46,641 nt of DNA from Candidatus Pacearchaeota archaeon (GCA_036169915.1 JAVHOF010000075.1:1-46641), one strand, 5' to 3'; shown: positions 11,553 to 39,828, counted from the first letter of the stretch. The notes: generated from the letters alone by a model not told the origin. Program-made: numbers and translations.

Positions 11553-11628
11553 TAGCGGGGGCAGGATTTGAACCGTGCGACTTCCGGGTTATGGGCCCGG
11601 CGAGAACTCCAGGCTTCTCTACCCCGCT
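11553..11628 (-). tRNA. initiator tRNA-Met (anticodon CAT)
   Basis: The reverse complement folds as a cloverleaf: acceptor AGCGGGG/CCCCGCT with A1:U72, D arm GAGA-AGCCTGGAGT-TCTC, anticodon arm CCGGG-CCCATAA-CCCGG (three G:C pairs next to the loop), and T loop TTCAAAT. Discriminator is A and no CCA is encoded. The T stem 5' strand has one extra C. Confidence 0.85.
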
Positions 11629-11685
11629 GTTATATATGAAAACAAAGTAAAAACCCTTATAAAGTTAACTATCTCAAGAATATTT

Positions 11686-12333
11686 ATGAAAGTCTTAGGT
11701 ATTGACGAAGCAGGCAGAGGCCCTGTAATAGGGCCGATGATTATTGCAGGAGTAATGATTCATGATGGAAAAGAAGCAGAGCTTGGTGCTGTAAAAGATT
11801 CTAAGCTTTTAGCTCATAAAAAAAGGATAGAATTAAATCATTTAATTCAAGAACATTCAGAATTTAAGATAATAGAAGTTTCTCCTCAAGAAATTGATGA
11901 AGCTCTTGATTCTAACAATAAATTAATGAACTTAAATTGGTTAGAAGCATATAAGCAAGCTGAAATAATTAATGAATTATCTCCAGATATTGCAATAATA
12001 GATTGTCCTCATCCAGTTCCAAAAAAATATGAAAATTATCTAAGAAAATTATTGATTAATAAAGAAATAAAATTAATTGTTGAGCATAAGGCAGATGTTA
12101 ATTATCCTGTTTGTTCAGCAGCTTCAATAATAGCAAAAGTAAAGCGAGAGGAAGAAGTTGATAAATTAAAAAAGAAATATGGGGATATTGGTCCTGGTTA
12201 TCCTGCAAATGCAACAACACAAAAGTTCATAAAAGAAAACTGGAACAAGCATCCTGAAATCTTCCGCCATTCCTGGTCTACATTCAAGAATGTTGAAAAA
12301 GCCAATGATATAAAGCAGAAGAAGTTGTTTTAA
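11686..12333 (+). CDS. rnhB: ribonuclease HII
   Basis: MKVLGIDEAGRGPVIGPM, DSK and SAASIIAKV motifs. The ORF-track start at 11575 runs through the tRNA gene, so I used the ATG at 11686. A TATAAAG box lies 22-30 nt upstream. Confidence 0.9.
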   Translation: MKVLGIDEAGRGPVIGPMIIAGVMIHDGKEAELGAVKDSKLLAHKKRIELNHLIQEHSEFKIIEVSPQEIDEALDSNNKLMNLNWLEAYKQAEIINELSPDIAIIDCPHPVPKKYENYLRKLLINKEIKLIVEHKADVNYPVCSAASIIAKVKREEEVDKLKKKYGDIGPGYPANATTQKFIKENWNKHPEIFRHSWSTFKNVEKANDIKQKKLF

Positions 12334-12818
12334 CCTCTAAATCTCATACCCTCTAATTTTCTTCTTGTTTTTGCCTGCCCTTTTCTAATATTCTCTGTAT
12401 ATTTTCGAACTCTTTCATTAATAGCTAATTGCATTTCTAAAGCAACTTTTTGTGCAGGAGAATATTGTTGGGTTTTAGAAAAAATTTGCTGGCTTAAATC
12501 ACTTACCATTTGTCCCATCATAGCACATGGAACAGCAACATTTAATTCATACCAAAGTGTTCCTTCTTTTGTTCTATAAAAATCATTTCTTAATTCAGGT
12601 AAATAATGATATATTAATGCAATACTTAAACCTAGATTTCGCTCATTACTTATTTCATCATCATAATTATATCCTTTTTCTTCTAATATTGCTTTTGATT
12701 CATCTGTTAAAAATCTTCCAATAGCCTCTTCAGTAGGTATTTGTCTATATTGAATCATAGTACTTTTATCAAGTTCATAATTTCTGCATATTGATTCAGC
12801 TAATTCTTCATCAGTCAT
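12330..12818 (-). CDS. hypothetical protein (162 aa, soluble)
   Basis: ORF with its own TTTAAAA box upstream. It converges on rnhB with a 4-nt overlap. No motif recognised. Confidence 0.6.
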   Translation of the reverse strand: MTDEELAESICRNYELDKSTMIQYRQIPTEEAIGRFLTDESKAILEEKGYNYDDEISNERNLGLSIALIYHYLPELRNDFYRTKEGTLWYELNVAVPCAMMGQMVSDLSQQIFSKTQQYSPAQKVALEMQLAINERVRKYTENIRKGQAKTRRKLEGMRFRG

Positions 12819-12876
12819 AATATTTTAATTCTTAATAAGTTTAAAAGTATTTATATTCTATAAAATCTTTAAAAAT

Positions 12877-13515
12877 CTATGCAGCAAGGCTTAAATTGCT
12901 TTCCAAATCATACGCAGGATTTTTGAAATTATCTAATCTAGCAATTTTAATTCCTTCTTCAGGTCTTTTTATATAATCATAAAAAGATTCTTTAGCATGA
13001 GCTAATGCTCTTGCAGTTATTTTAGAATCATATTTGCTCTTGCCTCTTAACAAATCAGAAATTTCTCCAATGCCTAGAGGAAGATAAGCAGCAGCTCTTT
13101 CAGCAAGACCTTCTCCAATTATTTTTGTCTGGTCACTAAGCTTTTCTCCAGGAGAATCAGATTTAGCATGTTTTAAATAATGAGCTTCATCAATTGTATC
13201 TGCAACTGTTTTTTCCAATAATCCAACGCCTTTAAGTCCAAATCCAGCACCGCCAAGAGCCCAAAACATATAGGTTCCAATAGCATCAGCTCCAGCCCCA
13301 GTTGTTCTTAAAAAAGTAGAAACATAACTTCCAAGTCCTTTTGATTCAAAATATTCTTTTGCATAAGTATCATAGGATTTAGCTAAAGAATATTCTAAAT
13401 TTTTTCTTAAAGAAACTTTTCTGTCATCATCAGCTTTTTCAAAGTGTCCTCTAATATCAGCATCTTTTTCAATCAATCTATCTGCATATTCCTTAACAAA
13501 TTCTTCTTTTCCCAT
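12877..13515 (-). CDS. hypothetical protein (212 aa) with central glycine-zipper-like hydrophobic segment
   Basis: Contains TTGAGADAIGTYMFWALGGAGFGLKGVG. Its ATG lies 1 nt after the stop of the CBS gene, so it is the last gene of an apparent three-gene operon. Confidence 0.65.
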   Translation of the reverse strand: MGKEEFVKEYADRLIEKDADIRGHFEKADDDRKVSLRKNLEYSLAKSYDTYAKEYFESKGLGSYVSTFLRTTGAGADAIGTYMFWALGGAGFGLKGVGLLEKTVADTIDEAHYLKHAKSDSPGEKLSDQTKIIGEGLAERAAAYLPLGIGEISDLLRGKSKYDSKITARALAHAKESFYDYIKRPEEGIKIARLDNFKNPAYDLESNLSLAA

Positions 13516-13516
13516 T

Positions 13517-13894
13517 TTAATTATTATTTAATTTTTTTAATATTTGATGGATTGTTATTATCCCAATCATTTTTTTATCTTTAACAACAGGTTCCATTAC
13601 ACTATGCTTATTTACCATTGCTTCATAAAGATTTTCTAAATCATCTTCAATATCAGCAACTTCAACAGGTTCTGACATAATATCTTTTCCTTTAGTCTTA
13701 TGGATATCTTTTCCTTCTGCAACAACTCTATTATTAATATCTGTAATAGATATTATTCCAACAGGATAATCTTTTTTATCAACGACAAATATGTGTCTAA
13801 GAGTATAGGTTCTTAATTTTTTAGCAATTTCTAAAACTGATTCATCTTCTTTGCATTTAAATGCTTCAATTAAAACACAGTCTTTAATTTTCAT
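13517..13894 (-). CDS. CBS-domain pair protein
   Basis: A stand-alone tandem CBS pattern (VGIISITDI.., MIGIITIHQILK). I chose the ATG at 13894 because it forms an ATGA overlap with the upstream stop; the ORF-track start is 13909. Confidence 0.75.
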   Translation of the reverse strand: MKIKDCVLIEAFKCKEDESVLEIAKKLRTYTLRHIFVVDKKDYPVGIISITDINNRVVAEGKDIHKTKGKDIMSEPVEVADIEDDLENLYEAMVNKHSVMEPVVKDKKMIGIITIHQILKKLNNN

Positions 13895-15288
13895 ATAAAC
13901 CATCCACAATCTATGCTTGTACTATTTAATCTATCATTTGAATATTCAGGAGTATTTTTATAGTTTTCTCCTGAATTTTGAGTAGGATGACTCTGACTAG
14001 AATAAACTTCAATATTATCAATTAAATTATTATGACTGTCAGCCAAATCATTATGTCTTCTTACAGCTTCTTTTAATGCAGAATTTAAAACTCTTTGTTT
14101 TGCATTTCTTCTGTATCTAAGATAAGCTAAACCCGTAGCAAGAGCACCAACAGATAATGAACCAACAGATTCAACAGTCCTAACTATACTTTCAATAGAA
14201 CTTGAAAATATTCCTTTTTTATTAACAAAATCTTCTCTAGTTTCAATATCATATCCTCTTGTTTTTAATTCACCTATAATTTCATCAACACTGCCCCTTA
14301 ATCCATTTACTTTTTCTTCAATTTGTTTTCTATAAGTCTCGAACTCTTCAGGAACTCTTTCTCTTATTTTTTGTTTTAGTTCAATACCATCTTTTAATAG
14401 AGTCTGTAATCTTGTTAAATATTTTTTATTATCTTGAATAGCCCCATATAATCTTTCAGATTCAGATAAACTAGCTCTAAGTTTTAATAATGTTTCATTT
14501 CTATCACTATTAGTTTCATAATTTTTTATAAAATTTTTAAGATGTTCTTTTGAACCTTCTTTTTTATATTGATCTCTTAAAAACTCCAAAAGATCTTTTT
14601 CCTCATCTATTAATTGAGGTGAATGTTCAATATAATCATTTAATTTTCTTAATACCTGCACTTCAGCAGTTTTATTATCTTCATTAGCATCATATATTTT
14701 GCATAATTCAGTTAATCTTTGTTTTATTACAGTTCTATAAGCCTGACCTTCTGTTCCAGATTTTTTCCCTAATGCAGAACGAATAGTATCATTAATACTT
14801 CTCATAAAACCAGGTTGTTTTGATTCTAAAACATCATCTAATGAAAGTAATCTTCTATCAATTCTATCTTTAAATTCTCTAGCTCTTTCAGCAAAAATAT
14901 AATGAGCTTCAAACTCTTCACCATCCTCAATTATTTTTTCAAATTCAGAAATTTCAGCAGGAGTTGCAATTCCAAGTTCCTCATAAACACCTAATTTTCC
15001 ATTAGTATAATGTCTTTCTAATGCTTCTGTTTCTGAAGCAAGTTTTCTTTCTAAAGAACCTGATAATGCTTTAATATCCAAACCAAGTTTTTTTATTTCT
15101 TTTTCAGCATCACAAACAACACCTAATATTCTTTTACCAGCATAATCAAGTCCTAAAAAACATAGCCCACCAGTAACCATACCAGTTGTAATGGATTTCC
15201 CACTAGATTTAAGAAAATCTCTTCTGGATAACCTTCTTTTAAGGCTTTTTTCATCCAATTTTTGGGCTCTTTGATATTTATTTTCCAT
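13891..15288 (-). CDS. membrane-associated coiled-coil protein with twin-arginine-type N-terminal motif
   Basis: 465 aa. SRRDFLK is followed by a Gly-rich hydrophobic segment, then a long E/K/L-rich helical region. A second hydrophobic segment (VGSLSVGALATGLAYL) sits near the C-terminus. Confidence 0.65.
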   Translation of the reverse strand: MENKYQRAQKLDEKSLKRRLSRRDFLKSSGKSITTGMVTGGLCFLGLDYAGKRILGVVCDAEKEIKKLGLDIKALSGSLERKLASETEALERHYTNGKLGVYEELGIATPAEISEFEKIIEDGEEFEAHYIFAERAREFKDRIDRRLLSLDDVLESKQPGFMRSINDTIRSALGKKSGTEGQAYRTVIKQRLTELCKIYDANEDNKTAEVQVLRKLNDYIEHSPQLIDEEKDLLEFLRDQYKKEGSKEHLKNFIKNYETNSDRNETLLKLRASLSESERLYGAIQDNKKYLTRLQTLLKDGIELKQKIRERVPEEFETYRKQIEEKVNGLRGSVDEIIGELKTRGYDIETREDFVNKKGIFSSSIESIVRTVESVGSLSVGALATGLAYLRYRRNAKQRVLNSALKEAVRRHNDLADSHNNLIDNIEVYSSQSHPTQNSGENYKNTPEYSNDRLNSTSIDCGWFI

Positions 15289-15418: not shown

Positions 15419-18283
15419 ATGACTTATATTAAAAAATTGGTGATGAAGGGATTCAAGAGCTTTGCACGAGAAACAATAATAGATTTTGACCAGCATATGA
15501 ATGTAGTTGTAGGTCCAAATGGTTCAGGTAAAAGCAATGTAACAGATGCTCTATGCTTTGTTTTAGGAAGATTATCAATCAAAAGTATAAGGGCTGCAAA
15601 AGCATCTCATCTAATTTTTTCAGGAAACAAGGAATTTAAGGGTGCAAATGAAGCTTTTGTTGAAATTTCTCTTGATAACTCTGACAAAACCTTTTCTCTT
15701 GATAGCATGGAGATAACAATAAAAAGAATTGTCAGGAAAAATGGACAGAGCATTTATAAAATAAATCATGAGACAAAAACAAGGCAAGAAGTTCTTGAAT
15801 TATTAGCACAGGCAGGAATAGATCCACATGGATTCAATATTGTTCTTCAGGGTGAAATAGAAAAATTTGTTAAAATGCCTTCTGAAGAGAGAAGAAAAGT
15901 GCTAGAAGAAGTTGCAGGAATATCGGTCTATGAAATGAGAAAAGAAAAATCTCTAAAAGAGATGGAAAAAACAGATGAGAAATTAAAGCAGATAAATGCC
16001 ATTTTAAGAGAAAGAACAAATTATCTTAGAAATCTTGAGAGTGAAAGAGAAGAAGCATTAAAATTCAAAAAATTAGAAGAGTTTAAAAAAAGATGCAAGG
16101 CATCTATAGTCCATAGAAATTTTCAGGAAAAGGAAAAAGAATTAAATGATGTTCTTGAACAGATTGAATCAAAAAACAAGGAAATAAAGAAAAAACAGGA
16201 ATTAATTGGAAAAATTCAAAGCGAAGCAAATATATTGAATGAAAAAATAAATTATATTTCTTTGACAATACAAAAATCTTCTGGAATAGAACAAGATTCT
16301 CTTATTTCAGAAATTTCTCTCTTAAAACAGGAAATAGCAGGATTATTTGCAAGAAAAGAAAATTTTGAAAATCAGCTTCTTGAATTAAGCAGAAGAAAGC
16401 AGACTCTTGAAGATTCAACAGAAATGCTTGAATCTGAAATTAGGGAGATTTCAAAAGAAAAGGGGAAAGATAAAAAAAAAGAATTAGAGGGGAAAAAAGC
16501 AAGATTAGAATCTCTTGATGAAGCTAAAAGGCAGTATTATCTTATTAAGTCTAATTTATCTTCAACAACTAATCAGATAGAAGATAAAAAGAGAGAGATT
16601 CAGAGAATAAAAAACGAATCTAATTTTATCATAAATCAGATTGAACAACTGGAAAGAGAATTGAAAACAAAAGAAAGCATTGAAAAAAACCATGAATCAA
16701 TTGTTCATTTAAAAGATGTCATAGCAGAACTAAAACAGAAAATAATTTCAATGGAAGAATCTATTCTTGAAAAAGAACGAGCAATTGCAACAGATAGACA
16801 GATAATAAAAGAAGCAGATTTAATAAAATCCCAGGTATCTAAATTAGACATATGCCCTTTATGCAAGACAAAAATAACTAAAGAACATATAGATGAAGTA
16901 ATAAGCAAGTCGGATTTAGATATAACAGATTCAGCATTAAAAATCCAAGAAGCTGAAAAGCAAATATCTGGAATTAAAAATGATCTTCAGAAAATAAGGG
17001 AAAGAATAAATTCCAGTTCAAATGAAATTAATCAAAGAGCAATAGATTCAATAAAAAGCCAGAGCATAAATGAAAAAAAAGAGCAGTTAAAAAGAAATCA
17101 CGAACAGTCAGATATTTTTGAAAAAGAGCTTCAAAATCTTGAAATAAAAAAGAAATCTTTTGAAGATAAATTCTCTATTATGAAGCTAAGTGATGAACAA
17201 TATGAAAATCTAAGATTGGAAATTAATGAACTTCAGAGAAGTGAAGAGAGAAATCTCGGAATGGAAATAACTTCAAAGCAAAGAGAACTTGAAAGAATAA
17301 AGCTTGCAATTAAGCAGAACATAAGAGACAAGGAAGAATTAGTTGAAACATTAAAAGAAATAAGTGAAAGTCTTGAAACAAAGCAAAAAATAACAGAAGA
17401 AAAAGAAGAGCAGTCAGAAATTGTAAAAAGAAAATATCAGAAAATGTTTGAAGAGAAAAATTCTCTTCAGGATAAACTCAGGATGTTTGAGACAAATATA
17501 ATGAAGCACCAGAATGAAAAAATGCTTTATGAATCAGAAAATAATAATCTTATGATTACAAAAGCTCAGGTAAATGCAAGAAAAGATTCTTTAATGCAAG
17601 AATTAAAAGAATTTGAAAATGTAGAGTTTCTAACAATGAACGTTGAAAAATTAAAAGAAAAATTATTTGAAACTGAGGGTATTTTGGCAAGAATAGGAAA
17701 TGTTAATCTAAGAGCCTTGGAAGTTTATGATAATATTAAGGCAGAATATGATAAAATAAAAGAAAAAGTTGAGCAATTAGAAAAAGAAAAATTTGAAATT
17801 TTGAATATAATAGCACAGATTGATAAAAAGAAAAAGAAAACTTTTCTTCAAACTTTGGAAAAAATAAATGAATTATTCTCAAGAAATTTCTCTCAATTAA
17901 GCACAAAAGGAATAGTAAATCTTGAGCCTGAAAATACAAAAGAAGTGTTTGATGCAGGCTTGAACATTACTGTAAAAGTTGGGGGTGGAAAATACTTTGA
18001 TGTTACTTCCTTGTCAGGAGGGGAACAAACCCTAGTAGCTCTTTCTTTAATATTCTCAATCCAGGAATACAAGCCTTATTGTTTTTATATTTTTGATGAA
18101 ATTGATGCAGCTCTGGACAGAAGAAACTCAGAAAGACTTGCATACCTCTTAAAAAAATATATGAAAAACGGCCAATATCTGATAATAACTCATAATGATT
18201 CAATAATATCAGAATCTACAAATGTACTTTATGGAGTAAGCATGCAAGAAGGAATATCCAAGGTTTTAAGCTTGGAGATTTAA
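15419..18283 (+). CDS. smc: SMC-family chromosome-organisation ATPase, hinge-less, with central CPLC motif
   Basis: The N-terminal head has GFKSF..VVGPNGSGKSN, LQGEIEKF and EEVAGI. The C-terminal head has LSGGEQTLVALSLIFSIQ, FYIFDEIDAALD and YGVSMQEGISKV. Residues ~170-790 are continuous E/K/L/I-rich coiled coil. CPLC is at residues 479-482 (nt 16853-16864). Confidence 0.85.
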   Translation: MTYIKKLVMKGFKSFARETIIDFDQHMNVVVGPNGSGKSNVTDALCFVLGRLSIKSIRAAKASHLIFSGNKEFKGANEAFVEISLDNSDKTFSLDSMEITIKRIVRKNGQSIYKINHETKTRQEVLELLAQAGIDPHGFNIVLQGEIEKFVKMPSEERRKVLEEVAGISVYEMRKEKSLKEMEKTDEKLKQINAILRERTNYLRNLESEREEALKFKKLEEFKKRCKASIVHRNFQEKEKELNDVLEQIESKNKEIKKKQELIGKIQSEANILNEKINYISLTIQKSSGIEQDSLISEISLLKQEIAGLFARKENFENQLLELSRRKQTLEDSTEMLESEIREISKEKGKDKKKELEGKKARLESLDEAKRQYYLIKSNLSSTTNQIEDKKREIQRIKNESNFIINQIEQLERELKTKESIEKNHESIVHLKDVIAELKQKIISMEESILEKERAIATDRQIIKEADLIKSQVSKLDICPLCKTKITKEHIDEVISKSDLDITDSALKIQEAEKQISGIKNDLQKIRERINSSSNEINQRAIDSIKSQSINEKKEQLKRNHEQSDIFEKELQNLEIKKKSFEDKFSIMKLSDEQYENLRLEINELQRSEERNLGMEITSKQRELERIKLAIKQNIRDKEELVETLKEISESLETKQKITEEKEEQSEIVKRKYQKMFEEKNSLQDKLRMFETNIMKHQNEKMLYESENNNLMITKAQVNARKDSLMQELKEFENVEFLTMNVEKLKEKLFETEGILARIGNVNLRALEVYDNIKAEYDKIKEKVEQLEKEKFEILNIIAQIDKKKKKTFLQTLEKINELFSRNFSQLSTKGIVNLEPENTKEVFDAGLNITVKVGGGKYFDVTSLSGGEQTLVALSLIFSIQEYKPYCFYIFDEIDAALDRRNSERLAYLLKKYMKNGQYLIITHNDSIISESTNVLYGVSMQEGISKVLSLEI

Positions 18284-19446: not shown

Positions 19447-20742
19447 TTAATAATAACTTGTTTCACCGAATTCTTCAGTTTCTGCAGGTCTTCTTGTTAA
19501 TAGCACTATTAATACTATCAAAAGCACTACAAAGATTATAACTAAGATTACAGTAAGAACTAGAACAGTATTGTTTTCAGTTATTCCTGAAACGCCTGTT
19601 GTTGTTCCTGTAGTTGTATTCTTCTGAACATTCAGAGTGAAAGTAACTTTTCTTTCAAGTCCGCTTTCAGAATTGACATCCACTGTAACTAAGCTAGTAC
19701 CTTCATTAGCACTATCTAAAGCTTTTACTTTGACGCTTACAGTCTTACTTGAATCTGCACTTAATGCAACAACTGGTTCAGATACTTCGACAGCTAATCC
19801 TGTTACTGGTTCAGGAACGATTGAATAAACAACCATCCTGTCATTAGGATTAACCAAAACAACATTAAATGTTGCTTCTTCGCCTATTGCAATTGATTTT
19901 GAAGTTACAGTTGGAACAACTCCAGTCTGTATACTTTCAACAACAATTTTCTTTACCACAGTTGTACTTGTGTCATAGTTATAAGCTTCAACTTGCAAAT
20001 TGTAAGTTCCTGCATTAGCATTACTTGGTATAGATAAATACAAAACTTTGTCCAGAGTATCTTTTATATTCTGGTAGTAGTCTGTATTATCTTCAGGTCT
20101 AGGACCTAAATCCCCAAAGTAAAGTAGTCTTTCAACTCCTAATTCAGGTATAGAAGCTCTAACATATACATTATCAAGTCTATTGTTTCCATTGTTTTCA
20201 ACAACAACATCAACAGGAATTGTGCTTCCAGATGTTACTTTGCTTGGTGCATCAACAGAAAGTGTATTTAAGCTGTAAAGCTCTCTTTCCATTGTTATAG
20301 ATCTTGAATCTATAACTGTGTTATCTGCTGAATATATTTCTATATTCAAAGTTGTCTCTTGAGAAAGATCTTCTAAGTCTCTAGCAGAAGGAAGATTTAA
20401 AGTAAATCTTGCTACATATCCATTAACATCCTTTTTTAAAGGAGTTGATAATGTAGTAGTTTCTTCAATGTCATCTTTCAAGCCTCTTATAGAAACTTTA
20501 ACCTTAACCCAATCTGTTACATCTTTCAATGCTCCAAACTCAACTTCTACAGGAACAGTATCAGCTACTTTTCCTACATAAGTTTTTGCATTAGTTGCTA
20601 TAACTCCATTGATTTCAATTCTGTCAATTCTGACAAAACCAGAATCAGTAGTAGAAGCATTTTCCACAGCAAGGACTGTATTCAAAGCAAGAGCTATAGC
20701 TAAAAATGCTATAAAAGAAACCCATATCGCTTTGTTTTCCAT
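19447..20742 (-). CDS. cell-surface (S-layer-like) protein with signal peptide and C-terminal membrane anchor
   Basis: Sec-type signal (..ALNTVLA/VE) and a T/V/S/N-rich beta-type sequence. A Thr/Gly-rich linker (TTTGTTTG) precedes a TM helix and a basic/acidic tail. Confidence 0.6.
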   Translation of the reverse strand: MENKAIWVSFIAFLAIALALNTVLAVENASTTDSGFVRIDRIEINGVIATNAKTYVGKVADTVPVEVEFGALKDVTDWVKVKVSIRGLKDDIEETTTLSTPLKKDVNGYVARFTLNLPSARDLEDLSQETTLNIEIYSADNTVIDSRSITMERELYSLNTLSVDAPSKVTSGSTIPVDVVVENNGNNRLDNVYVRASIPELGVERLLYFGDLGPRPEDNTDYYQNIKDTLDKVLYLSIPSNANAGTYNLQVEAYNYDTSTTVVKKIVVESIQTGVVPTVTSKSIAIGEEATFNVVLVNPNDRMVVYSIVPEPVTGLAVEVSEPVVALSADSSKTVSVKVKALDSANEGTSLVTVDVNSESGLERKVTFTLNVQKNTTTGTTTGVSGITENNTVLVLTVILVIIFVVLLIVLIVLLTRRPAETEEFGETSYY

Positions 20743-36937: not shown

Positions 36938-37117
36938 ATGGTGACAATTGACAAAAACAAATGTATAGGATGCGGAGCATGTGCTTCAGTATGTGAAGCT
37001 GTTTTTGAAATGAAAGATGATGGAAAAGCTCATGTTAAAAAAGGCCAGGAAAAGTCTAAAGACTCCTGTGTTAAAGAAGCTGCAGAATCCTGCCCTGTTG
37101 AAGCTATAAAGATTTAA
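36938..37117 (+). CDS. fdx: small [4Fe-4S]/[3Fe-4S] ferredoxin (59 aa)
   Basis: CIGCGACASVCE ... CP motif. GGAGG at 36921-36925 precedes the ATG at 36938; the ORF-track start is 36908. Confidence 0.8.
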   Translation: MVTIDKNKCIGCGACASVCEAVFEMKDDGKAHVKKGQEKSKDSCVKEAAESCPVEAIKI

Positions 37118-39690
37118 AATCTTGCAATTATAACAATGACTAATATAATAAATAATATTAGCAAAATCAATAAAAAAACAGGCCAAAAATACCTATTAGT
37201 GTTTTCAGTACTTGTAACAGCTTTGCTTAATTCTATTGTTTGAACACTTTCATTTATAGCATTAGATTCAACATTTTCATTATAAATTACAGGAGATAAA
37301 ATACCATTAGTTGTTTGATTATTCTCAACAAAAGGATAATTTTCATTATCAGGATTATAAATTCCTCCATCACTAAGATCTTTACATTTTCCATTTTCAC
37401 AATCATGACTGCATTCTGAAACTAATTGTTTAGTGGTATTTTTCTGGCATTTTCCAACTTGGCATGAAAAATGAGTTAAATCTTTGTAAACATCACTTCC
37501 ACTGCAGTATTTTTCTGAAAAATAATCTTTAGTGCAATCAGAATCAATTACACATTCTCCAATGCATAATCCATTTGAGCATCCATTAGTGCAGTTTTTA
37601 GTTAATTTATTTTCAGTTATATTTGTGCATACACTTGCTGTTGTTCCAGCATTATTGCATGTAAATGTAATAAATTTATCATAAGAATTATTAGCATCAC
37701 AAAATAATTGCCCTAAATATCTATTGATTCCGCAGTCAGAATTATTTAAACAAGCTATAGAATTATGCTGACAAGAACTCTGAACTGTTCCTGGATTCAA
37801 ACATTTATCTTCTGTTCTAGGATTATTATCATTGCAGTCATTATCACTATCACAAGCAGCTTCACTGCAAACTCCATTTAAACATTTTTGAGTTTCATAA
37901 CAAATTGTTTTTTCTTTTGCAACACTTAAACTTGTACATGTACTTGAAGCTGTTCCAGCATCATTACAAGTATAGGTTATAAAATTTTGAAATATGTTTT
38001 TGCTTCCAGATTGACAGAAATTATTTCCTATAAACCCATCACATCCGCAATCTCCATTAGTTGAACAAATTATATTATTATGCTCACATTTTGAATTAAC
38101 TGTTCCAGGATTGATGCATTTATCTTCTGTCTTTGGATTATTGTCATTACATTGAGAATCAGAACTGCAGGTTATATCAGCGCATTTGTTATTAGAGCAA
38201 ATCTGATTTGTTCTGCATTCCTGCACTAATCTTTCCTCACTTGAATTAGTACATAAGCTAAAAATAGTTCCAGGGTTATTGCATGTAAATGTTTTGTAAA
38301 CATCATAAATATCATTATTTTTACATCTAAGCATATTCAAAAATCCATCATATCCGCAATCTGCATTATTTGAGCATGTAATATTATTATGCTGACAAGA
38401 ACTCTGAACTGTTCCTGGATTCAAACATTTATCTTCTGTTCTAGGATTATTATCATTGCAGTCATTATCATTAAAGCATTCTATTTTAACACATTTATTA
38501 TTTATACATGATTTTCCATCAGAACAATCTGCATTTGAAGAACATTCAGGATTGCAAAATCCAGAAGAACATCCTTTTGCACAAACTTCTATTAAAGTTT
38601 CTTCTTCTTTCCATGTTCCAAAGCATTCTCCATCAGAACATCCTTTTTCATTGCACAATCTTGAATGATAAGCATTATTCTGATAACAATAAGGACTTTC
38701 ATAATTATTGCAAACATTTTCTCCGCAATCAATTAAGAATGTTGGAACTGTTGTAATCTTGCATGAGCTTTGAATAGTTCCGGGATTCAGACATTTTGAT
38801 TCTTGATAATTTTTAAAAACATCATTACTAGAGCAGAATTCAGCTCCAAAAAATCCACTAAAACCACAATCATTATCAACTATACATTTTATAGCTGTAT
38901 GATTACAATAACTTTCAGAATTTCCAGGATTAATGCATTGATCATATGTATATAAATTATCATCATCACATTCTAAGTTTGAAGAACATGCTATTTCTCT
39001 GCATGTTATTCCATAATCAAGATGTCCATAAGAATAAGTTGATGTTGCTGCCCATTGTAATTTTTCCCATTGAGTTCCATTCCAGGCCAATTCCCAGTTT
39101 CCACCATTACACCAGCTTGCAGGCCTAAAATTTATTACATCTGAATATCCTTTTAATTCACAGATTTTTTTTGCAGACTCAATACTTGACATAAACTCTG
39201 TCCCTGAAGAAAGGGTCTGTAAAGGTGATCCTGCATGCAATTCTTTATAACTTATTTCAACTGAATTAGTAAAATCAAGTCTTGAAATTTCTCCAGGATT
39301 CATGTTTCTACAAGTTAATGTCCTTATGACAGGGGGGTGTTGACATGGATCTCCATTTATATAAGCATGTGAACCTTTTGTTATCCACTGATTAGTTGTT
39401 GTATCCCAATATTTTATATTTACACTTCCTGTCCATGAAGCTGCAACAGCATAAGGATTTCCAAAGCTTTCAGCAACAGGATAAGTTCCATTTGTTTTTT
39501 CAATGCATAATTTTGTGGCAGTAGCAGTATTTGCAATATATTTTGCATCAAAACTTGTGAATGTTATATTAGAAGCAGAAACAAAACCAGTTGATAAAAC
39601 AATAAAGCTTAGAAAAATAATTATATTAAATATTCGTACAAAATAAAGGTTATTTTTTAATTCTTGTTCTTTATGGTTTAAGGGTTTCAT
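37114..39690 (-). CDS. large cysteine-rich repeat surface protein with C-terminal membrane anchor
   Basis: The ATG at 39690 is preceded by GAGGTGGT with a 10-nt spacer; the ORF-track GTG is at 39705. It has an N-terminal signal/anchor and at least four modules of the form C..D.DCNDNNP(R/K)TEDKC(L/I)NPGTV.S.C.HN.I.C..N.DCG. The C-terminal TM helix is FWPVFLLILLILFIILVIVII. Confidence 0.75.
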   Translation of the reverse strand: MKPLNHKEQELKNNLYFVRIFNIIIFLSFIVLSTGFVSASNITFTSFDAKYIANTATATKLCIEKTNGTYPVAESFGNPYAVAASWTGSVNIKYWDTTTNQWITKGSHAYINGDPCQHPPVIRTLTCRNMNPGEISRLDFTNSVEISYKELHAGSPLQTLSSGTEFMSSIESAKKICELKGYSDVINFRPASWCNGGNWELAWNGTQWEKLQWAATSTYSYGHLDYGITCREIACSSNLECDDDNLYTYDQCINPGNSESYCNHTAIKCIVDNDCGFSGFFGAEFCSSNDVFKNYQESKCLNPGTIQSSCKITTVPTFLIDCGENVCNNYESPYCYQNNAYHSRLCNEKGCSDGECFGTWKEEETLIEVCAKGCSSGFCNPECSSNADCSDGKSCINNKCVKIECFNDNDCNDNNPRTEDKCLNPGTVQSSCQHNNITCSNNADCGYDGFLNMLRCKNNDIYDVYKTFTCNNPGTIFSLCTNSSEERLVQECRTNQICSNNKCADITCSSDSQCNDNNPKTEDKCINPGTVNSKCEHNNIICSTNGDCGCDGFIGNNFCQSGSKNIFQNFITYTCNDAGTASSTCTSLSVAKEKTICYETQKCLNGVCSEAACDSDNDCNDNNPRTEDKCLNPGTVQSSCQHNSIACLNNSDCGINRYLGQLFCDANNSYDKFITFTCNNAGTTASVCTNITENKLTKNCTNGCSNGLCIGECVIDSDCTKDYFSEKYCSGSDVYKDLTHFSCQVGKCQKNTTKQLVSECSHDCENGKCKDLSDGGIYNPDNENYPFVENNQTTNGILSPVIYNENVESNAINESVQTIELSKAVTSTENTNRYFWPVFLLILLILFIILVIVIIARF
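37550..38485 (-). repeat. three tandem ~312-nt (104-aa) coding repeats inside the Cys-rich gene (boundaries approximate)
   Basis: An 84-nt stretch is identical between 37763-37846 and 38387-38470, which is 624 nt = 2 units apart. A diverged copy lies about 38075-38158. A more distant fourth module is near 38900-38990. Confidence 0.7.
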
Positions 39691-39828
39691 TAACCCCCCT
39701 ACCACCTCAGTCTCTTATTTATGCTATTAAGATAGTTAAAAACCCAAAAGATGATTTATAAATAGTGCTATAATGCAATATATACTTTAAAAGACATACG
39801 TCCGCAACAAGTATAATTATTTGAAAAT

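Follow-up and report, generated by a model that had tools for sequence, protein, structure and literature searches.

A Pacearchaeota SMC protein with a predicted Rad50-type zinc hook in the place of the hinge

The contribution of the hinge to SMC function has long been debated, and the domain has been discussed as a DNA entry gate, as a DNA-binding site and as a partner of the heads in loop extrusion. Here we describe a gene, denoted hook-SMC, in a stretch of 46,641 nucleotides (nt) from a Candidatus Pacearchaeota archaeon (GCA_036169915.1 JAVHOF010000075.1:1-46641; the whole stretch is referred to as the window), whose 954 aa product has SMC-type heads and arms, lacks a hinge and bears a CPLC motif at the tip of the coiled coil. 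The protein had been singled out in an earlier reading of the window that was made without database searches (the sequence-only reading). Its closest described counterpart is the Smc of Smc-ScpAB (Pyrococcus Smc, PDB 5XEI and 4I99), with which it shares heads of ~46% identity, all ATPase motifs, collinear antiparallel arms and, as in hinge-type relatives, the rnhB neighbour; it differs in carrying a ~14-residue hook instead of the hinge, in being ~190 aa shorter and in that scpA-scpB does not follow the gene. The apex resembles that of Rad50/SbcC (PF04423; 1L8D), with a CPxC in the same flanking pattern and the same proposed chemistry of a shared Zn2+, whereas the heads and arms are not those of Rad50 and there is no mre11-rad50 operon. 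In the Rad50 hook, each chain contributes two cysteines and each dimer binds a single Zn2+ (Hopfner et al. 2002, as cited in PMC5344682).

The same composition, with a Rad50 hook for the hinge and the heads and arms of SMC, is found in the engineered B. subtilis Smc(Zh), in which the hinge was replaced by the hook of P. furiosus Rad50, with normal growth and a preserved arm-length periodicity (Burmann et al. 2017, PMC5344682), and Rad50 carrying an SMC or MukB hinge was functional in yeast (Tatebe et al. 2020, PMC6969161). These chimeras are laboratory constructs, whereas the swap in hook-SMC is natural, ancient (reaching down to 39% identity) and fixed in an archaeal lineage; hook-SMC is the natural counterpart of an exchange of domains that had been known from engineered proteins alone. 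Two further families are comparable in part. The ASRPs (ClsN/coalescin, Sph1/Sph2; NF045487) are likewise archaeal members of the SMC superfamily with an apex zinc hook (PMC9389158), but at ~600 aa and with divergent heads they form a separate family. The 'hinge-less' SMC of marine Actinobacteria (Sussfeld et al. 2025, PMC12153180) also combines SMC heads and coiled coil without a hinge, but it is bacterial and explicitly devoid of CXXC, whereas the hook clade is archaeal and its hook is invariant. In the full-text literature that was searched, we found no description of a canonical SMC that naturally bears a zinc hook, although an earlier mention may exist. The sequence survey of Burmann et al. 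seeded its SMC sets with hinge alignments (PMC5344682), and surveys seeded in this way would have missed hook-SMCs; the database label 'chromosome segregation protein SMC' likewise hides the architecture.

We consider it likely that the gene is the SMC orthologue of its lineage and that its product forms dimers through a Zn(Cys)4 hook between subunits, where other SMCs use a hinge. Where laboratory chimeras swapped the hook for the hinge, evolution appears to have done likewise and to have retained the outcome across a large archaeal lineage. If so, hook-SMC would be evidence from nature that all SMC function requires is a stable dimer at the apex and arms that are properly tuned, would imply a transfer of dimerisation modules between the SMC and Rad50 branches of the superfamily, and would offer a compact, naturally hinge-free SMC of 954 aa for biochemistry and structure determination.

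Heads, arms and apex of hook-SMC

The open reading frame (ORF) starts with ATG in the list of window ORFs and encodes 954 aa plus a stop, and all motifs that had been quoted from it (GFKSF, GPNGSGKSN, QGEIEKF, EEVAGI, LSGGEQTLVALSLIFSIQ, FYIFDEIDAALD and YGVSMQEGISKV) are present in the translation. Pfam SMC_N spans residues 3-946 (1e-48). The NCBIfam SMC models TIGR02168 and TIGR02169 scored 496 and 483 bits, each through a two-part match that leaves out the hinge, compared to 87.5 bits for the best Rad50 model (cut-off 700), 54 for RecN and 37 for RecF. In a sequence search of the PDB, the best match was the Pyrococcus Smc head with coiled coil (5XEI, 8e-100, ~46% identity), whereas Rad50 heads were matched at 2e-12. 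Structure predictions were monomer AlphaFold2 (AF2) models, with the full-length protein and the apex segment modelled separately; a Foldseek search with the full-length model matched the head to 5XNS (TMt 0.81, root-mean-square deviation (rmsd) 3.1 Å) and, being dominated by the heads, was uninformative on the apex. In an alignment of 104 sequences, GPNGSGKSN (G32, P33, N34, G35, G37, K38, S39 and N40, with S36 in at least 90%), Q144, LSGGEQ, FYIFDEIDAALD and H925 are invariant, as are F889, Y890, F892, D893, E894, D896, A897, A898, L899 and D900 in the Walker B motif and D-loop; the neck helices near the head contribute 18 invariant residues between positions 163 and 213. The head of the window protein is 67% identical to those of other hook proteins, 52% to Woesearchaeota-type hinge SMCs, 37% to euryarchaeal SMC, 36% to bacterial SMC and 24% to a DPANN Rad50, and a DPANN Rad50 used as a phmmer query matched no hook-SMC at E ≤ 1e-3. 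The heads are thus those of a canonical archaeal SMC and not of Rad50, as the sequence-only reading had proposed from their motifs.

In favour of an assignment to the ASRP family (ClsN/coalescin, Sph1/2) rather than to canonical SMC, the ASRP model NF045487 matches residues 297-664 with 111.5 bits, and the ASRPs have an apex hook too (PMC9389158). We regard this assignment as very improbable. The score falls short of the cut-off of 300 and the match covers the coiled coil and hook only, without the heads; both heads and arms are homologous to and collinear with canonical SMC, the clade lies inside SMC, and the gene shares its synteny with hinge SMC. The ratio of SMC to ASRP scores (496 to 111 bits) contradicts a placement with the ASRPs.

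Comparison by phmmer to 15 hinge-bearing relatives showed collinear alignments on both sides of the hinge: residues 1-473 of hook-SMC align to residues 1-470 of one relative (P0158, hinge at 504-681), and residues 490-954 align to residues 688-1159 of another (P0155, hinge at 510-693), indicating that both arms are SMC arms. What is missing relative to hinge SMCs is the ~180-aa hinge and ~30 residues of the N-terminal arm. The nearest hinge-bearing relatives have 1133-1172 aa and a hinge envelope of ~180 aa, in agreement with the earlier estimate that the missing length is about that of a hinge. Pfam SMC_hinge (PF06470) did not match hook-SMC even at E ≤ 10, and a local hinge hidden Markov model (HMM) built from related SMCs detected a hinge in 100 relatives and in 0 of 153 CPxC-bearing proteins. 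Between residues ~170 and ~790, where the sequence-only reading had seen no hinge segment, none was found by Pfam, by the lineage-specific HMM or in the AF2 model.

The full-length AF2 model (predicted local distance difference test (pLDDT) score of 76.8) has helices across residues 168-827, with breaks at 208-219, 346-352, 415-420, 588-591, 607-613, 731-741 and 760-769, and a single non-helical loop (474-487) that separates helix 421-473 from helix 488-587. The CPLC motif, which lies at the arithmetic midpoint of the protein as had been noted, falls in this predicted fold-back (Table 1), so that its placement at the apex of the coiled coil is upheld by the model. In the 104-homologue alignment, the arms are the least conserved part of the protein and the island at residues 470-494 stands out, with D477, C479, P480, L481, C482 and H490 invariant. 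CPLC is invariant in 120 of 120 homologues of 63-100% identity, and a search of 1.8 billion cluster representatives extended the clade to members of as little as 39% identity. Every full-length protein among these distant members, which come from Pacearchaeota-type DPANN archaea, carries C-P-x-C followed by [ILVMF]-[TSD]-x-x-[HY]. C-P-x-C is thus invariant over at least 150 sequences in which the flanking coiled-coil residues are free to vary. Given its invariance in the 120 homologues and the presence of CPxC in all more distant full-length members, CPLC is not a chance occurrence.

The likeness to the Rad50 hook extends beyond the cysteines, along the pattern LD-x-CP-x-C-x-x-x-[ILV]-[TSD]-x-x-H. 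As a single sequence, hook-SMC matches Pfam Rad50_zn_hook (PF04423) weakly at residues 474-497 (12.9-17.6 bits, below the cut-off of 24.3), and the model matches 23 of 24 apex segments from the clade (best 1.3e-7). A profile built from 24 diverse apex segments (94 aa) matches the Rad50 hooks 1L8D (P. furiosus) at 4.7e-10, 6ZFF at 4e-9 and 5GOX (human) at 8.5e-5, compared to 0.0026 for the best non-Rad50 match. The AF2 model of the apex segment is a helical hairpin (pLDDT 95.2) whose top three PDB matches are Rad50 hooks, with a TM score of 0.82-0.84 and an rmsd of 2.2-2.4 Å for 1L8D. By profile and by predicted fold, the apex is a Rad50-type hook, a result that goes further than what the sequence-only reading had surmised from the motif.

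Phylogenetic position and distribution

Head trees were built by neighbour joining; rooting on bacterial SMC was stable and rooting on a Rad50 was unstable. The hook proteins together with four short relatives form a clade (bootstrap 96/100) that is sister to the Woesearchaeota-type hinge SMCs (97/100). The clade thus nests within archaeal SMC and not within Rad50, which is what a head-domain phylogeny had been suggested to decide, and the topology fits one hinge-to-hook replacement inside archaeal SMC. None of the refuting conditions that the sequence-only reading had named was borne out. Named members are labelled 'Candidatus Pacearchaeota', 'Nanoarchaeota' or 'uncultured archaeon', and all, including the most divergent one (P0144), are annotated simply as SMC ('chromosome segregation protein SMC').

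Hundreds of independent contigs, drawn from many different samples and sources, carry the same architecture with intact ATPase motifs. The length is nearly fixed, with 81 of the 120 homologues having exactly 954 aa, which is consistent with constraints on arm length that have been reported for Smc (PMC5344682). The view that the gene is an artefact of assembly or annotation, or a pseudogene in decay that has lost its hinge, would have only the unusual length in its favour; we give it almost no credence, and recurrence across contigs, fixed length and invariant ATPase motifs rule it out.

The four short relatives (P0140, P0141, P0142 and P0145; L271 is the locus of P0140) are full-length SMCs of 779-804 aa that are nested in the hook clade and have neither a hinge nor an apex cysteine. 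Their arms are shared with hook-SMC as far as the two AF2 breaks at about residues 350 and 613, and the distal 260 aa between these breaks are swapped for an unrelated helical segment of ~100 aa, which is most simply explained as a later remodelling of the apex. These relatives are more like the actinobacterial hinge-less type than the hook-SMCs are.

An apex without a hook is viable in the hook-SMC family, as these four relatives indicate, and marine Actinobacteria are reported to have hinge-less SMCs without CXXC (PMC12153180). On these grounds, CPLC might not be a zinc hook at all: hook-SMC could be a hinge-less SMC whose apex is held by helical packing or does not dimerise, the cysteines forming a disulfide or a structural turn. 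We consider this quite unlikely, given that C-P-x-C is invariant over at least 150 sequences down to 39% identity while its flanks vary, that the likeness to the Rad50 hook reaches beyond the cysteines (profile match at 4.7e-10), and that the presence of only two ligands per chain is the hallmark of an inter-subunit site.

In 12 orthologues (P0014, P0019, P0033, P0038, P0055, P0078, P0105, P0107, P0108, P0116, P0124 and P0128), inteins split the Walker A motif exactly between K38 and S39 (GPNGSGK/C...HN/SN; the site corresponds to window nt 15530-15535). These inteins have ~525 aa with a LAGLIDADG endonuclease, P0055 has a mini-intein of ~160 aa, and the window copy is intein-free. As inteins usually mark conserved essential sites, their presence is a hint that hook-SMC is essential.

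Short-armed SMCs occur in other DPANN lineages. At the loci L151, L153, L154 (Naiadarchaeum), L167 (Undinarchaeota) and L168, we identified hinge-bearing SMCs of 810-843 aa directly upstream of scpA, which represent a natural 'mini-Smc'.

Genomic context, partners and proposed mechanism

The rnhB gene lies upstream of hook-SMC in the window, in six related loci, in the contig of P0090, in L001 and in the deep-branching loci L272 and L274. The rnhB-smc order was also found in the nearest hinge-type SMC loci (L013 and L276), and being common to hook and hinge loci it supports positional orthology. In the sister lineage of Woesearchaeota, smc (hinge-bearing, 1138-1142 aa), scpA and scpB form an operon (L161, 525-5213, and L276, 4475-11300, with the gene order rnhB - aspS - smc(hinge) - scpA - scpB at L276), and scpAB also follows smc in L165 and L172. 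The hook lineage retains rnhB-smc, with no scpAB at the position where Woesearchaeota have them.

We propose the following mechanism for hook-SMC as an SMC orthologue. In an ancestor of the Pacearchaeota-type DPANN lineage, the ~180-aa hinge would have been replaced by a ~14-residue hook of the Rad50 type. Each chain is predicted to fold back at residues 474-487 into an antiparallel arm of ~300 residues (roughly 45 nm) that carries a complete SMC ATPase head and, on its opposite end, the CPLC hook. By analogy to Rad50, two chains would be joined tail-to-tail through one Zn2+ shared by four cysteines, and the hook would supply the constitutive dimerisation that is normally given by the hinge. 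The dimer may be V- or rod-shaped, with heads that would engage on ATP. Judging by homology and by the strongly conserved neck helices, we infer that a kleisin probably bridges the heads, and that the head cycle would act on DNA in the manner of Smc-ScpAB, in chromosome folding and segregation.

Several results weigh against this interpretation. The SMC equivalog cut-offs were missed (496 bits vs. 567.35 for TIGR02168, and 483 vs. 729.4 for TIGR02169), as could be expected if the hinge is missing. The kleisin was searched for with four local ScpA HMMs, seeded with smc-adjacent genes of Euryarchaeota and DPANN, and with ScpB by phmmer, on six-frame translations. Neither ScpA nor ScpB was found in the window (Pfam on ORFs of at least 100 aa, and the local HMMs) or in ~250 kb of flanks around at least 25 hook-SMC loci, and 0 of 160 ScpA loci in GTDB (from the best 80 of ~450-550 hits per scan) were on a known hook-SMC assembly. 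In profile searches of protein databases and in the GTDB scans, ScpA was labelled Micrarchaeota, Woesearchaeota or 'Nanoarchaeota' only, among the matches listed. In some Woesearchaeota, scpA is unlinked from smc (L166 and the 80 loci of one GTDB scan), which makes a relocation of scpAB in the hook lineage as plausible as its loss.

The sequence-only reading had stated that neither a kleisin nor an mre11 gene is adjacent, which is correct for the window (Pfam on ORFs of at least 100 aa, and the ScpA and ScpB HMMs) and does not extend to a marine subclade of orthologues, where mre11 adjoins the gene. In L001, whose hook-SMC is 63% identical, an Mre11 homologue (12869-14059, minus strand; PDB 1II7, 4e-24) is convergent (tail-to-tail) with hook-SMC, and in a metagenome scan the same arrangement was found in all ten loci of this marine subclade (L001, L255-L265) that had enough flank. 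The Mre11 proteins of this subclade are 74-91% identical to each other, and no rad50 lies next to mre11 in these loci. At L266 and L267, where Mre11 is 55% identical, an intact mre11-rad50 operon encodes a Rad50 of 682 aa with a hook of its own (NLDVCPTCLQ; PDB Rad50, 1.6e-21), showing that this part of the tree does contain a classical Rad50. The mre11 adjacency is absent from the window and from nine other hook-SMC loci, including L272 and L274. As a functional link we rejected it, because it is convergent and confined to one closely related marine subclade; it is kept as a lead and not as evidence of a partnership.

With an apex of the Rad50 hook type, a tail-to-tail mre11 with no rad50 beside it in the marine subclade, and no kleisin found near any hook-SMC that we examined, the protein could be thought of as a functional Rad50 on an SMC chassis, working with Mre11 in double-strand-break repair, or as one that does both jobs in a reduced genome. 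We hold this to be unlikely: the heads are 52% identical to Woesearchaeota SMC compared to 24% for a DPANN Rad50, the phmmer search with a DPANN Rad50 misses the hook-SMCs at E ≤ 1e-3, the mre11 adjacency is non-operonic and limited as described above, the locus is positionally orthologous to hinge-SMC loci, and L266 and L267 retain an mre11-rad50 operon whose Rad50 has its own hook. Similarly improbable, in our judgement, is a variant by which Pacearchaeota lost ScpAB and the hinge-to-hook swap came with a change of partner, hook-SMC working without a kleisin or with Mre11; the latter option would fit the presence of mre11 without an adjacent rad50 beside hook-SMC in the marine subclade. In that case, a single SMC-derived machine would serve both chromosome organisation and Rad50-type end tethering or repair in a minimal genome.

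Features of the gene and its neighbourhood

Table 1. Features of the hook-SMC gene in window coordinates, with the evidence for each
Feature	Position (nt)	Strand	Evidence
hook-SMC gene	15419..18283	+	Pfam SMC_N 1e-48; 120 homologues at 63-100% identity
N-terminal half of ABC ATPase head, residues 1-167	15419..15919	+	Matches Pyrococcus Smc head 1-256, 195 bits; Q144 and R58 invariant
Walker A GPNGSGKSN, residues 32-40	15512..15538	+	Conservation in 104 sequences
Ascending coiled-coil arm, residues 168-473	15920..16837	+	AF2 helices 168-207, 220-345, 353-414, 421-473
N-arm coiled-coil break, residues 346-352	16454..16474	+	AF2, low-confidence and non-helical; pairs with break 607-613
Rad50-type zinc-hook island KSQVSKLDICPLCKTKITKEHIDEV, residues 470-494 (predicted)	16826..16900	+	Conservation peak, profile, AF2
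C479-P-L-C482, predicted zinc ligands (2 per chain, 4 per dimer)	16853..16864	+	Translation; conservation
Descending coiled-coil arm, residues 488-770	16880..17728	+	AF2 helices 488-587, 592-606, 614-730, 742-759
C-arm coiled-coil break, residues 607-613	17237..17257	+	AF2; partner of break 346-352
C-terminal half of ATPase head, residues 771-954	17729..18280	+	Matches Pyrococcus Smc head C-lobe, 148 bits; H925 invariant
ABC signature LSGGEQ, residues 865-870	18011..18028	+	S864, L865, S866, G868, E869 and Q870 invariant
Walker B FYIFDE, residues 889-894, then D-loop IDAALD	18083..18100	+	Conservation in 104 sequences

The features of the gene are listed in Table 1. The paired breaks of the two arms in the AF2 model are a possible elbow, and the break in the N-terminal arm also borders the distal module for which the P0140-type relatives have a different segment.

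The window has ~28% GC and an archaeal gene content, encoding ribosomal protein S6e, aIF5B, aEF1A, diphthine synthase, RNase HII and a DnaG-like Toprim protein; a search with Rfam gave no match in the window. A tRNA-Met gene (11553-11628, minus strand) overlaps the 5' end of the rnhB ORF (11575-12333, plus strand, GTG start). Because the Pfam match begins at residue 41, the real start of RNase HII is probably the Met at nt 11686 (MKVLGIDEAG).

Between rnhB and hook-SMC, four genes lie on the minus strand (12330-15288), encoding proteins of 162 aa and 212 aa, a CBS-domain protein of 130 aa and a protein of 465 aa that is rich in coiled coil and has predicted membrane segments; three of the four have no Pfam family. 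As the related loci have no counterpart of these genes at the corresponding place, they seem to be an insertion that is specific to the lineage and interrupts the rnhB-smc synteny. Two further minus-strand genes encode proteins of 431 aa (19447-20742) and 863 aa (37114-39705) that have a transmembrane anchor at the C terminus or repetitive sequence, are not assigned to a family and may be surface or S-layer-like proteins. The 431-aa protein is conserved downstream of hook-SMC in four other loci (L004, L005, L007 and L009).

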